A DNA stretch of 64,000 nt from Gemmatimonadales bacterium (GCA_035763805.1 DASUAL010000133.1:2518-66517); one strand, 5' to 3'; positions 32,168-37,004 are shown, numbered from the stretch's first letter. Numbers and translations: made by a program. Notes: generated by a model not told the origin, from the sequence alone.

Positions 32168-33604
32168 ATGTCGCGCCCCAATGCGGCGAGCGCAGTCGTC
32201 TTCGCGCTCGCCGCCTGCGCCGCGAATTCCACCAGCAGCCCGCCGCCACCCGACCCCGCGCGCGTCGTCGCGTTTCTCGACACCCTCGAGGAACGCACGT
32301 TCCACTACTTCTGGGACCTCACCAACCCCCAGAACGGGCTCACCCCGGACCGCGCGCCCAGCCCGTCGTTCTCGAGCATTGCGGCCGTCGGGTTCGCGCT
32401 CACTGCTTACCCGATCGGGGTCGAGCGCGGCTACGTCACCCGCGGCCAGGCCGCCGAGCGGACCCTCACCACGCTCCGGTTCTTCTGGACGGCACCCCAA
32501 GGACCGGGCGCATCAGGCGTGACCGGCTATCAGGGCTTCTTCTACCACTTCCTCGACATGCAGACGGGCCACCGGTTTCAGACGGTCGAGTTGTCGACCA
32601 TCGACACCGCGCTACTGCTCGCGGGCGTGCTGTTCTCGCAGTCGTACTTCGACGGCAGTGACTCGATCGAAACGGCGATCCGCGCTGTGGCGGACTCGAT
32701 CTACTCCCGGGTCGATTGGAACTGGGCGCAGGCGCGTCCTCCCGCCGTAAGCATGGGGTGGCACCCCGAGACGGGGTTCATCCGGAATGATTGGCTCGGC
32801 TACAACGAGGCGATGATCCTCTACATTCTCGCCCTGGGCTCTCCCACCCACCCTGTCGAGCCGGCAGCCTGGGACGCGTGGGTGGGGACGTATCAGTGGG
32901 GCTCGTGGTACGGCTTGCCGCAGGTCGGCTTCGGCCCGCTGTTCGGGCACCAGTATTCCCACGTGTGGATCGATTTCCGAGGGCTACGGGACGCCTACAT
33001 GCGGGGGCACGGCATCGATTACTTCGAGAACTCGCGCCGCGCGACCTACGCGCAGCGCCGCTATGCGGAGGCCAACCCCGACCGATGGAAGGGATACAGT
33101 GCGTCCGTCTGGGGACTCACCGCGTGCGATGGCCCGGCCAATGCGACACTCCTGCTGGATGGGCGCACGCGCCAGTTCCACACCTACTGGGCGCGCGGGG
33201 CCTCGTTCACCGAGATCACGGACGACGGCACGATCGCTCCCACCGCGGCCGGCGGTGCGGTGCCCTTCGCGCCCGAGATCGCCATCCCCGCGCTGATCAC
33301 GATGCGCGAGACGTACGGGTCGCATCTGTTCTCGACCTACGGGTTTCGAGACGCGTTCAATCCGACGTTCACCGCCACCAGCGCGCCGGTGGAACGGGGG
33401 ACGGTCGATCCGGTGCTCGGCTGGTTCGACGTCGACTACCTCGGCATCGACCAGGGGCCGATCCTTGCGATGGTGGAGAACCATCGTACCGGGCTCGTGT
33501 GGCGCATCATGCAGCGCAATCCGGCAATCGTCCGGGGCTTGCAGCGGGCGGGGTTCACGGGTGGGTGGCTGAAGGGAGCGCGGGGCGGGCGGAAGGAGGA
33601 CTGA
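32168..33604 (+). CDS. Lipoprotein, glucoamylase-like (alpha/alpha)6 glycoside hydrolase (PF10091-like; possibly GH144 beta-1,2-glucanase)
   Basis: 478 aa. Lipobox ALAAC. Motifs as I remember them for this family: FHYFWD, GFFYHFLD, FGHQYSHVWIDFRG, DYFENSRRAT, WGLTACDGP. Confidence 0.7.
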   Translation: MSRPNAASAVVFALAACAANSTSSPPPPDPARVVAFLDTLEERTFHYFWDLTNPQNGLTPDRAPSPSFSSIAAVGFALTAYPIGVERGYVTRGQAAERTLTTLRFFWTAPQGPGASGVTGYQGFFYHFLDMQTGHRFQTVELSTIDTALLLAGVLFSQSYFDGSDSIETAIRAVADSIYSRVDWNWAQARPPAVSMGWHPETGFIRNDWLGYNEAMILYILALGSPTHPVEPAAWDAWVGTYQWGSWYGLPQVGFGPLFGHQYSHVWIDFRGLRDAYMRGHGIDYFENSRRATYAQRRYAEANPDRWKGYSASVWGLTACDGPANATLLLDGRTRQFHTYWARGASFTEITDDGTIAPTAAGGAVPFAPEIAIPALITMRETYGSHLFSTYGFRDAFNPTFTATSAPVERGTVDPVLGWFDVDYLGIDQGPILAMVENHRTGLVWRIMQRNPAIVRGLQRAGFTGGWLKGARGGRKED

Positions 33605-33654: not shown

Positions 33655-35037
33655 TCAGCGCGCGAACAGCGTATCGAAGGTCGCGGCCACGCGCCGGCGC
33701 ACCGCGTCCGCAGCCGCGAGCGGGGTTCGCGACGGCGCGCTCACCGGCTCGACGATGCGCGACACCGTCCCGCGCACGGCGTCGATGATCTGGAGCTGGA
33801 ACCGAACCGAGTCCCCGTCTCTGTAATAGGACCCGGAGACCACCGTGCCCGCGCCCGTGCGCGCGGTGAGCTCCTGGATCCCGGCGGCATCGAGATGACC
33901 ACCGATGGCTGCCGGCACGACCTCCACCGCCCCGCCCCGCGCCAGCCCCTGCGTGACCCAGTCGGCGGCCAGGTGGCCAAGGGGCGCCAGCGCTGCATCC
34001 CCGGAGAGGTCTTCGAAGCCGGCCACCACGACGCGCCGTGGATCGAGCGCCGGTTCGCGGGTCATGAGGAACGCCGCTCCGGCCGCGGCGATCAGCAGGA
34101 CGGCCAACCCTCCGATCGTCGCCGCCTTCCAGCTGATCTTCGGCAACCAGGCGGCGCTGCCACGGCGGTCCACGACGTCACGCAAGCAGGCAACGAAGTC
34201 GTCCACACTCGCGAACCGGTCCGCGGGCGATGCAGCCAGCGCGCGGCCGATGACCTCCTTCAGGAACCGCGCCGTTCGGTGATCCACACCCTGCTCCCGG
34301 AGGAAGGCCTCCAGTGCCGCCCGGCCGGGGGCCGAACCGTGGGCGAGATGGAGAAGCGGCGGCTCGCCGACCAGCATCTCGTAGAGCACACACCCCAGGC
34401 TGTAAATGTCGGTGCGAGCGTCGATCGCCCGGCTGCCGGCGAGCTGCTCCGGGCTCATGTAGGCCGGCGATCCGACGGCCTGGCCCACGCCGGTCAGCGT
34501 GGGGACGCCGGCCGCACTGACCGCGCGCGCGATCCCGAAGTCCGCGACGTAGGCGTGGTCGTCCTTGGAGAGGAGGATGTTCTCGGGCTTCACGTCGCGG
34601 TGCACGACGCCGTGGGCGTGCGCGTAGCTCAACGCGTCGGCCACCTCGAGCGTGAGGCGGAGCGCCTCGGCGAGCGGGAGCCGCTGCTCTCGGTCGAGGC
34701 GGACGCGCAGCGACTCGCCCTCGATGTAGGGCATCACGTAGTAGCACAGCCCGTCCGGCCCGTCGGGAACGAACAGGCACTCGTCGGCCGCTAGGATCGG
34801 CACGATGTGCGGGTGGCTGAGCTTGGAGGTGACCTCGACCTCGCGGATGAAGCGCTCCCGGAAGCTGGCGGTGCTGAGCTCGGGGTTCATCACCTTGATC
34901 GCCACCCGACGTGGCGGATGCCGCTCGGCGGCAAGGTAGACGCGCGCCATGCCCCCGGCGTCGATTTCGCGGTCCACGGTATAGTGCGGAGCCAGGCCCT
35001 CGCGCAGGGCGTGCAGGATGTCCATCATCGGCTGCAA
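33655..35037 (-). CDS. Ser/Thr protein kinase with TM helix and extracytoplasmic C-terminal domain
   Basis: 460 aa. VAIKVM, HRDVKPENILL, DFG and SPEQ kinase motifs. TM segment ATIGGLAVLLIAAAGAAFL. Confidence 0.9.
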   Translation of the reverse strand: MQPMMDILHALREGLAPHYTVDREIDAGGMARVYLAAERHPPRRVAIKVMNPELSTASFRERFIREVEVTSKLSHPHIVPILAADECLFVPDGPDGLCYYVMPYIEGESLRVRLDREQRLPLAEALRLTLEVADALSYAHAHGVVHRDVKPENILLSKDDHAYVADFGIARAVSAAGVPTLTGVGQAVGSPAYMSPEQLAGSRAIDARTDIYSLGCVLYEMLVGEPPLLHLAHGSAPGRAALEAFLREQGVDHRTARFLKEVIGRALAASPADRFASVDDFVACLRDVVDRRGSAAWLPKISWKAATIGGLAVLLIAAAGAAFLMTREPALDPRRVVVAGFEDLSGDAALAPLGHLAADWVTQGLARGGAVEVVPAAIGGHLDAAGIQELTARTGAGTVVSGSYYRDGDSVRFQLQIIDAVRGTVSRIVEPVSAPSRTPLAAADAVRRRVAATFDTLFAR

Positions 35038-35073: not shown

Positions 35074-35526
35074 TCAGCGCGGGTCGTTCCATTTCTCGAG
35101 CCTCTGGCCCGCCTGATGCCAGGCCCGGATGCCGCCCAACAACACCGCTACCCGCTCCCCGTCGACACCCCCTGCCATCAGCCTTCGCGCCGCCCGGACG
35201 CTTGTGGCTTCGTCCACTCAGGCACAGTAGAGGATGAGCAGGCGATCCGGCGGCACCGAATCCGGCAGTAGCTGCCCCTTCGCCGCCTCTATTGCCGACA
35301 GGGGGAGCGAGACCGCGCCGGCGGCGTGGGCGTTGTCGTACAGGCGGCGGTCGCGGGTGTCGACCAACACCGCGCGGCCCGCTGTGACGAGCGCCTGGGC
35401 CTCGGCAACCGAGATTCGCCGAACGGCCGGCAGCTCGGTCGGGACGACGTCGGGATCCTTCGGCTCCGGGGTCATGAGCGCGCTCCTGTAAACCGCCGGG
35501 GGGACGATAAGGTTCGGGCGGGCCAT
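35074..35526 (-). CDS. Single-domain rhodanese-like sulfurtransferase interrupted by one in-frame TGA (35220-35218): selenocysteine candidate or nonsense pseudogene
   Basis: ORF 35218..35526 ends ...LLILYCA-TGA. The same frame continues for 47 sense codons (VDEATSVRAARRLMAGGVDGERVAVLLGGIRAWHQAGQRLEKWNDPR) to the TGA at 35076-35074. The joined 150-aa product is a complete rhodanese fold. Confidence 0.6.
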
Positions 35527-35595: not shown

Positions 35596-36237
35596 ATGGG
35601 CACCTCGGCAGCCGTTCACGTCATTGACGACGCCGACCGCGCAGCAACCGTGCTGCATCCGTTACGCCTCAGGATTCTCGCCGAGCTCGATCGACCCGAT
35701 TCGGCGGCGGGCCTGGCGCGGCGGCTCGGCCTGCCGCGCCAGAAGCTCAACTACCACCTCCGTCAGCTCGAGCGACAGGGCCTCGTCGAAGCCGTCGGCC
35801 AGCAGCAGAAGCGGGGCTGTACCGAGCGCCTACTCCGGGCGGTGGCGCAGTCCTATTTGATCAGCCCGGCCACGCTCGGAGACCTCGCGGTCGATCCGGC
35901 ACGCGTCCAGGACCACGTCTCCAGCGCGTACCTCGTGGCGGTCGCCGCCCAGGTGATTCGCGAGGTCGCCGCGCTGCGAGACCGTGCCCAGCGCGCCAAC
36001 AAGGGAGTGCCGACGCTGACCCTCCAGGCCGACGTCCGCTTTGCCTCCGCCAAGGCGCAGCACGCCTTCGCCCAGGAGCTCTCGCGGCAGGTGGCACGCC
36101 TCGTCGCCAAGTACCATGACGACCGCGCATCCGGCGGTCGCCGGTTCCGGTTCGTCGCCGGGGCCTACCCCGCCCCCGCCCCGCCCCCCGCGCACGATGC
36201 AATCCCGGAGGCCACGGAACACCAGGAGGACACATGA
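35596..36237 (+). CDS. ArsR/SmtB-family-like winged-HTH transcriptional regulator with C-terminal extension
   Basis: 213 aa. LHPLRLRILAEL...LARRLGLPRQKLNYHLRQLERQGLV is typical of an ArsR-type HTH. Confidence 0.85.
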   Translation: MGTSAAVHVIDDADRAATVLHPLRLRILAELDRPDSAAGLARRLGLPRQKLNYHLRQLERQGLVEAVGQQQKRGCTERLLRAVAQSYLISPATLGDLAVDPARVQDHVSSAYLVAVAAQVIREVAALRDRAQRANKGVPTLTLQADVRFASAKAQHAFAQELSRQVARLVAKYHDDRASGGRRFRFVAGAYPAPAPPPAHDAIPEATEHQEDT

Positions 36238-37004
36238 GCAAGCAACGAGACGAGCGGGTGGTCGAGCGCGAGGTCGCCCTCGACGCGCCCACCGCCGTGG
36301 TCTGGAAGGCACTCACCGACGCCGGGGAGCTGATGCGTTGGTTCCGGCTGGAGGCCCGTGTATCGCCGGGCATGGGCGGCACCGTGTGGATGCGGTGGGA
36401 CGACGCGTACGACGCGGAGTCCGCCATCGAGATCTGGGAGCCCGAGCGACACCTCCGGATCCGCTTCCCCCGCGAGCGGGCGATGCACCTCGCGACCGAC
36501 TACTACCTCGAGGGCCGGGCGGCGGGACGGTGTTGCGCGTGGTAACGTCGGGCTTCGGCGCCGGCGACGACTGGGACACCCTGTACGACGGTGTCCGGCG
36601 CGGTTGGAACTTCGAGCTGCTCGCGTTGCGCCACTACCTCGAGCGTCATCGCGGGCGCGATCGCGTGGTTGCCTGGGGGCGGGTCCCCTGTCGCTCGAGC
36701 CACCGGGACGCATGGAGCCGGCTCACCGGGCCGGGCGGCTGGTTCGGGGCCGGCGGACTGGGCACCGTCGCTGTCGACGCCCGCTACACCGCCCGGACGA
36801 CGACCGGGCACGTCCTCACCGGTGTGGTGCAGCTGTGGCAGCCGCCGCTGCTCTTCGCTGGCACGGTCGAAGGCTGCAACGACGCGCTGTTCCGACGGGA
36901 GCTGCAGGGCAAGGACGGCGCGGGCGAACTGTGGTTTTGGCTTGCCACGTACGGCGTCCCCGCCGCCGAAGCTCTTCGAAGAGCCGGCGGCCCAGCCACC
37001 GTAA
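36234..37004 (+). pseudogene. SRPBCC/Aha1-domain protein, frameshifted
   Basis: Frame 0 (36234..36545) encodes the N-terminal half (VEREVALDAPTAVVWKALTDAGELMRWF...). The domain continues in the -1 frame from about 36516 (GGGTVLRVVTSGFGAGDDWDTLYDGVRRGWNFELLALRHYLE...). The break lies in the G-run CCGGGCGG. The 3' end is uncertain: only frame 0 has a stop (37002-37004) before the convergent gene. Confidence 0.6.

Follow-up and report, generated by a model that had tools for sequence, protein, structure and literature searches.

A 2026 review of the prokaryotic selenoproteome distinguishes five forms of selenocysteine (Sec)-containing rhodanese, the third of which is the NCBIfam family NF041203, with the motif CxU and TKB26178.1 as its example (PMC13188914). 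Most selenoprotein families of this kind have been predicted computationally and their function is unclear (PMC9312934); the CxU rhodaneses are likewise a purely predicted family. Since this family is already catalogued, the principle of a CxU Sec-rhodanese is not new. The SECIS element of the Escherichia coli fdhF type is a stem-loop within the coding sequence that follows the UGA at a short and constant distance; its apical loop is small and holds a conserved G (G-G or G-U), as given partly in the figure legends of PMC1088965. We describe here a gene of a Gemmatimonadales bacterium (35475..35074, minus strand) which, on comparative sequence grounds, we take with a probability of about 0.88 to be an intact selenoprotein gene whose UGA at 35220-35218 is read as Sec.

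The gene lies in a stretch of 64,000 nucleotides, called the window in what follows; the features of the locus are collected in Table 1. The original prediction had pointed to an annotated open reading frame that stops at a TGA just after DRLLILYCA, with the same frame running on to a second TGA at 35076-35074. Translation of the window reproduces this. From 35526 to 35074 on the minus strand, the joined frame reads MARPN...DRLLILYCA, the internal TGA, VDEATSVRAARRLMAGG...LLGGIRAWHQAGQRLEKWNDPR and the terminal TGA, the residues that follow the internal TGA being VDEATSVRAARRL...EKWNDPR. A recount of the 47-codon extension gave the same third-position GC (39/47), and the gap that it was said to fill, between the TGA and the ORF that follows (TTG 35037), is 180 nt long. 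The joined product had been put at 150 aa and considered a complete single-domain rhodanese, and here the domain stood while the length probably needs correction. The Pfam Rhodanese profile (PF00581) matches residues 40-138 of the joined protein, reading across the TGA (E 1.4e-10; 41.9 bits for a cutoff of 22.2), and is covered from position 2 to 101 of 102, versus positions 2-69 only for the truncated ORF alone. Most homologues start at MTPEP/MSPDP, which corresponds to Met18 of the ORF first described, and that codon is preceded, at 7 nt, by an AGGAG. Both observations point to ATG 35475, 17 codons further in, as the likely start, and the product is thus probably 133 aa long, not 150. The protein is probably cytoplasmic.

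Table 1. Features of the rhodanese locus, with positions counted from the first nucleotide of the window
Feature	Coordinates	Strand	Remarks
Shine-Dalgarno-like AGGAG, 7 nt upstream of ATG 35475	35483..35487	-	CAGGAGCGCGCTCATG; putative function, from sequence
Proposed Sec rhodanese CDS, single-domain	35074..35475	-	133 codons including the UGA-Sec at codon 86, plus terminal TGA 35076-35074
TGT, invariant Cys at -2 from Sec (C of C-A-U / LYCAU)	35224..35226	-	candidate resolving Cys
In-frame TGA, proposed Sec codon, in active-site loop U-V-D-E-A-T-S	35218..35220	-	catalytic position; comparative
Block of suppressed synonymous change, codons +4 to +13 past the TGA	35179..35208	-	RNA-level constraint; includes A-ending ACA and CGA
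Conserved bSECIS-like mini-hairpin	35187..35201	-	RNAalifold consensus; comparative
Ser/Thr protein kinase gene	33655..35037	-	36 nt downstream of the rhodanese, same strand; Pfam PF00069

It had been mentioned, when the gene was first noticed, that rhodanese-related proteins figure among the bacterial selenoprotein families. This is so for the CxU rhodaneses, as a predicted family (PMC13188914), and the best NCBIfam match of the window protein is NF041203 itself, named "rhodanese_LYCAU, rhodanese-related (seleno)protein" (E 8e-14). The score of 51.3 bits is under the 115-bit equivalog cutoff, which makes the window protein a diverged relative of NF041203; by sequence comparison, the gene is a diverged branch of a known kind of selenoprotein that stays below the formal equivalog threshold. 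Against the same profile, a locus on a contig of 44% GC (L093) scores 169.9 bits and is a member of NF041203 by this measure, a DedA-rhodanese fusion scores 76, forms with Cys in place of the TGA about 70, and L010, 52.2. L093 reads LILYCA-TGA-KNEATS, then N16-GUGCC-CGUGU-GGCAC. The NF041203 proteins resemble the window protein in being single-domain, about 126-133 aa long, with L-Y-C-A-U, the UGA in the same column and, in L093, the same hairpin at N16; they differ in the loop, which is K-N-E-A-T or V-R-E-A-T instead of V-D-E-A-T. The clade of the window, unlike NF041203, is restricted to soil Gemmatimonadales and always has a Ser/Thr kinase gene on its 3' side.

A further architecture, the DedA/VTT-rhodanese fusion of a sister clade (L094, 9164-10159; L095-L106), has Y-C-T-TGA-[MV]REATS, with the TGA in the same column, followed by N16-GCGCC-CGKGU-GGCGC. 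It shares with the window gene the UGA column, the hairpin with its offset and the splitting into two called ORFs (a protein of ~270-284 aa and an orphan of 52-55 aa), and differs from it by an N-terminal DedA-type membrane domain and by being without a kinase neighbour. This fusion was not noticed among the five rhodanese forms of the 2026 review (PMC13188914). By comparison of these sequences, the UGA and its hairpin form a recoding module that the window gene has in common with an accepted member of NF041203.

The TGA has been kept throughout the Gemmatimonadales clade. Besides the window, related loci were taken from the DNA of 10 Gemmatimonadales/Gemmatimonadetes species genomes and of 80 metagenome contigs; the resulting 91 loci, from Gemmatimonadales MAGs and soil metagenomes, range from 46 to 100% in protein identity, the pairwise values among unique sequences going down to 46%. 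In all 91 the column is occupied by TGA; neither another stop codon (TAA, TAG) nor a sense codon was seen there. This includes 11/11 genome loci; 90 of the 91 were recognized by a motif scan and L088, which reads FYCT-TGA, by eye. The frame past the TGA remains open for 45-54 codons in all loci, and its codons +14 to +44 evolve with a dN/dS of 0.25 at a dS of 0.71, similar to the dN/dS of 0.37 in the 20 codons before the TGA. Such purifying selection argues that the part past the TGA is translated and selected as protein. Immediately before the TGA, the L, Y, C and A of the LYCA motif are invariant in 69/69 unique sequences, the Cys at -2 being encoded by TGC in some and TGT in others.

These data bear directly on the alternative that had been raised together with Sec, namely a fresh nonsense mutation. 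If a TGC or TGT had turned into TGA in a decaying gene, or if the TGA were a sequencing error, the locus would yield an 85-102-aa fragment or nothing functional. The change from TGC to TGA is indeed a single step, and gene callers everywhere stop at this TGA. Against this, the TGA is found in every one of 91 independent loci of 46-100% protein identity, the 47 codons downstream of it are under purifying selection, and the truncated product would have neither an active-site loop nor the last third of the fold. The divergence of the loci (dS ~0.7) also excludes that they all go back to one assembly artefact. The presence of the TGA in all loci, together with selection downstream, thus excludes a recent nonsense mutation, a pseudogene or a sequencing error for practical purposes, and we regard this explanation as extremely improbable. 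With the Cys homologues and the match to NF041203 added to the conservation of the TGA and the purifying selection, the choice strongly favours Sec.

Public databases carry the gene in two pieces. A protein search gave 25 true homologues (54-100% identity), each terminating at ...LYCA, and a profile search more than 230 database clusters, all cut at ...LYCA. The N-terminal piece, of ~85 aa, thus fills over 230 clusters and a C-terminal piece of 35-53 aa about 30 (P0001-P0129 and P0130-P0163), under the NCBI names 'rhodanese-like domain-containing protein' and 'hypothetical protein'. This is attributable to the divergence of the clade below the NF041203 cutoff, which leads pipelines to split the gene into two fragments. 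Five 'src' entries (P0027, P0011, P0028, P0029 and P0036) are chimeric or frameshifted versions of the rhodanese locus, P0027 consisting of a kinase N-terminus joined to a rhodanese C-terminus.

One might take the two pieces at face value and imagine a split gene, in which ribosomes terminate at the TGA and reinitiate at the following GTG, so that polypeptides of 85 and 47 aa assemble non-covalently. The codon after the TGA is a GTG in the window, and gene callers do call the 47-aa ORFs there. Across the loci, nevertheless, this codon specifies V in 45, Q in 25, A and K in 6 each, I in 3, P and R in 2 each and M in 1, and is thus often no start codon at all; the absence of a conserved restart codon argues against reinitiation. 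Moreover, the catalytic residue itself would be lost from the assembled protein, and homologues have a Cys at exactly the TGA column. A split gene is therefore very improbable.

Reassignment of TGA to a sense codon in this organism could also account for an open frame on both sides of it. A database protein from L093 (P0185, nucleotides 225-539) does translate the homologous TGA as Trp (LILYCA-W-KNEATS). This is an artefact of the gene caller: the DNA has TGA, and the joined protein passes NF041203. In the window, TGA is the most used stop of the confident ORFs (27 of 40, with 11 TAG and 2 TAA), and it ends the rhodanese gene itself in 87/90 loci. TGA being both the commonest stop and the terminal stop of the same gene, the code is standard, and we give reassignment virtually no weight. 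A scan of the whole window for other coding frames split by TGA returned only the terminal stop of the rhodanese, which is in frame with the kinase, and a site at ~8039 (minus strand). The latter has ~145 codons of high GC3 on either side and looks, by eye, like two adjacent in-frame genes, not recoding.

The position of the TGA in the fold can be read from the Cys rhodaneses. GlpE (PDB 1GMX), YgaP and PspE have the same fold by sequence. With the E. coli GlpE sequence from the genome record, a family-profile alignment and three pairwise settings all set the catalytic Cys65 against the TGA and retain the C-X5-S spacing. The two domains of 6mxv, in gap-free alignments, likewise have their catalytic Cys in this column. 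An HMM alignment to 1yt8 was ambiguous over a 2-residue gap, and it is the GlpE and 6mxv alignments that resolved the catalytic column. They lead to the conclusion that Sec is the catalytic residue itself. The original prediction had taken the Cys two residues before the TGA for the catalytic one; from the alignments, Sec replaces the catalytic Cys, and the Cys of Y-C-A is an extra, invariant one at -2. The six-residue spacing of the loop at the catalytic position is kept, with UGA/Sec as its first residue and an acidic V-D-E-A-T after it. GlpE differs in having Cys for Sec, no Cys at -2 and the loop Y-H-G-N-S.

A profile search with the C-terminal half recovered three kinds of sequence: the 47-aa orphans of the clade, called from the codon right after the TGA; the 52-55-aa orphans with M/V-REATSARVA; and Cys forms. 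The last (P0164-P0183, L107-L112) read LYC[STA]-C-[VP][RN]EATSAR...GGL[RD]AW, with TGC or TGT at the TGA column. Their YC[STA]-C-[VP][RN]EATS agrees with the YCxCPxE that had been given for homologues, and the alignment of orthologues that was called for at the outset can be summarized as TGA in 91/91 members of the clade and Cys in more distant homologues, a pattern of Sec/Cys pairing. The Cys forms are ~45-54% identical to the window protein over the C-terminal half and share C-x-[C/U] and the E-A-T-S-A-R helix start with it; they differ by TGC/TGT in place of TGA and by relaxed synonymous codon choice in the region of the hairpin. Within the Gemmatimonadales clade, the profile search of the databases yielded no Cys form. 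Longer 'src' entries, among them P0011 with 'YCACVD', were considered as such forms and set aside as not credible, since they look like noisy frameshifted reads.

The region just past the TGA is constrained at the RNA level. Over codons +4 to +13, third-position entropy is 0-0.26 bits; synonymous entropy averages 0.13 bits inside this block versus 1.02 outside (Mann-Whitney p = 1.3e-4), and dS is 0.10 versus 0.71 in the flanks. Nearly a single codon is used at each position (ACA 49/52, AGC 69/69, GCC 67/67, CGG 65/66, GCG 66/66, GCG 69/69, CGA 68/68), while the third positions of residues that are invariant elsewhere (G17, G29, A36, G37) are free to vary. The only structure that RNAalifold predicts there is GCGCC-CGGGC-GGCGC. 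It has a 5-bp stem that begins 16 nt past the UGA and a 5-nt loop that begins 21 nt past it, and corresponds in the window to the arms GCGUC (35201-35197) and GGCGC (35191-35187) around the loop CGGGC (35196-35192). The C-to-U change in the 5' arm of the window retains a G.U pair, with a predicted deltaG of -6.6 kcal/mol for the window hairpin and -9.3 for the consensus. The remaining variation lies in the loop (consensus C-G-K-G-Y, the second base always G) or is neutral to pairing. In L093, the second stem pair is changed from C-G to U-A, both changes being compensatory and at synonymous third positions. Since the stem is nearly invariant in the Gemmatimonadales clade, true covariation amounts to the one G.U change and this one compensatory pair of the sister L093.

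A different hairpin, GGACG-N10-CGTCC (35216-35196), had initially been pointed out as a possible SECIS. It pairs in only 2/35 unique orthologues and was abandoned; the conserved hairpin is the one at 35201-35187. Folding of the 76 nt past the TGA gave nothing better than shuffled sequences (z = +0.58, in a genome of 69% GC), so the window sequence alone is uninformative on the hairpin. A search of Rfam gave no family at gathering thresholds and, in a permissive scan, only a spurious snoRNA (E 0.8). The limits used by bSECISearch are 16-37 nt, with a loop of 3-14 nt. Like the fdhF-type SECIS, the window hairpin is a stem-loop within the coding sequence 3' of the UGA, with a G in the apical loop; it is far smaller (5 bp, 5-nt loop), lacks the bulged U and shows no evident lower stem that would extend to the UGA. 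With a G in its small apical loop, the stem-loop past the UGA is a candidate bSECIS-like element.

The Cys forms offer a control for this constraint. The stem is fully paired in register in 56/56 unique Sec forms and in 2/6 Cys forms; Ala+7 is encoded by GCC in 54/56 versus 0/6, and Arg+8 by CGG or CGT (CGK) in 56/56 versus 2/6. The six Cys forms have the same S-A-R-V/L-A peptide, written with other codons. Fisher tests of Sec against Cys forms give p about 5e-7 and 3e-5, values that are inflated by the relatedness of the sequences. From these comparisons, it is clear that the strict nucleotide pattern goes with the TGA and not with the peptide.

A hairpin of this sort might also act as a simple stimulator of UGA readthrough, rather than as a site for SelB, with a near-cognate tRNA inserting Trp, Cys or Gly and no selenium involved. 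Its small size and its lack of a match to any Rfam model fit such a scheme, as does the result of the search for Sec machinery. It had been stated that no selA, selB, selD or selC is in the window, and we found none there. E. coli SelA, SelB and SelD had no tblastn match in 742 kb of related contigs, and ARAGORN found no tRNA, hence no tRNA-Sec, in the window or in any locus. On the other side, the UGA stands where a thiol enzyme has its catalytic Cys, and relatives replace it with Cys codons only; of the three residues, Cys alone would preserve the catalytic chemistry. L093, which passes the curated NF041203, has this UGA with the hairpin as well. We consider selenium-free readthrough unlikely. 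A literature search on the use of Sec in Gemmatimonadota retrieved nothing for or against it.

Decoding of the UGA as Sec would, assuming the standard bacterial route, involve recruitment of SelB and Sec-tRNA(Sec) by the small G+C stem-loop within the coding sequence, starting 16 nt past the UGA. With Sec at codon 86, translation would yield a 133-aa single-domain rhodanese in which Sec heads the six-residue loop U-V-D-E-A-T ahead of the S-A-R-A-A helix, with the invariant Cys at -2 (C-A-U). The selenol may bind sulfane sulfur (or selenium) in a Se-S adduct; alternatively, it may pair with the Cys at -2 in a selenenylsulfide cycle, as CxU redox motifs do. In thiosulfate:cyanide sulfurtransferases of the GlpE/PspE/TST type, the loop headed by the catalytic Cys bears basic or neutral residues that bind thiosulfate; an acidic loop such as V-D-E-A-T may speak against thiosulfate as the substrate.

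The gene directly 3' of the rhodanese encodes a protein with a Pkinase domain (PF00069, residues 19-230, E 5e-45) and, from reading of its sequence, a putative membrane-spanning segment and a C-terminal region of ~110 aa. It is found at this place and on the same strand in all 82 loci with a tblastn match (among L001-L090), and the sister Sec clades are without it. The rhodanese and kinase genes seem to form a conserved pair that is particular to the Gemmatimonadales clade; judging from gene order, they are probably co-transcribed. The terminal TGA of the rhodanese is in frame with the kinase in the window, L001, L002, L004 and L008 and out of frame in L003 and L005-L007. A rhodanese-kinase fusion made by readthrough of this codon was considered and rejected, the frames agreeing in some loci only, which makes a conserved fusion unlikely. 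Upstream, an ArsR/HTH_20 regulator gene (35596-36237, plus strand) overlaps an AHSA1/SRPBCC gene (36234-36545, plus strand), both divergent from the rhodanese. The ArsR-type and AHSA1/SRPBCC pair is common to only three loci (window, L001, L011) and is thus probably outside the conserved unit. On the other side, a putative glucoamylase gene (32168-33604, plus strand; PF10091, E 1e-81) is convergent to the kinase and kept in a handful of the closest loci.

The constant position of the kinase 3' of the rhodanese suggests that the two may act together, as a pair that signals redox or sulfur status. It is tempting to go further and to see in them a dedicated signalling pair of soil Gemmatimonadales, in which a selenol that senses sulfane sulfur, selenium or redox conditions would regulate the kinase or be regulated by it, and which would be the first documented case of Sec in Gemmatimonadota as far as the literature found shows. 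This fuller picture is speculative and we hold it to be rather doubtful.

What this locus adds to the known CxU rhodaneses is, first, a large and diverged branch in soil Gemmatimonadales that lies under the curated cutoff and has been mis-annotated as an 85-aa fragment and a 47-aa orphan and, second, Sec as the catalytic residue itself. Three architectures of the family have the recoding hairpin in common, and it provides a signature, UGA-N16-GYGCC-CGKGY-GGCRC, which can be used for re-annotation. The strict linkage to a Ser/Thr kinase gene, also new, offers a way to test what CxU rhodaneses do. Should the Sec machinery be confirmed in these genomes, the gene would document the use of Sec in Gemmatimonadota.
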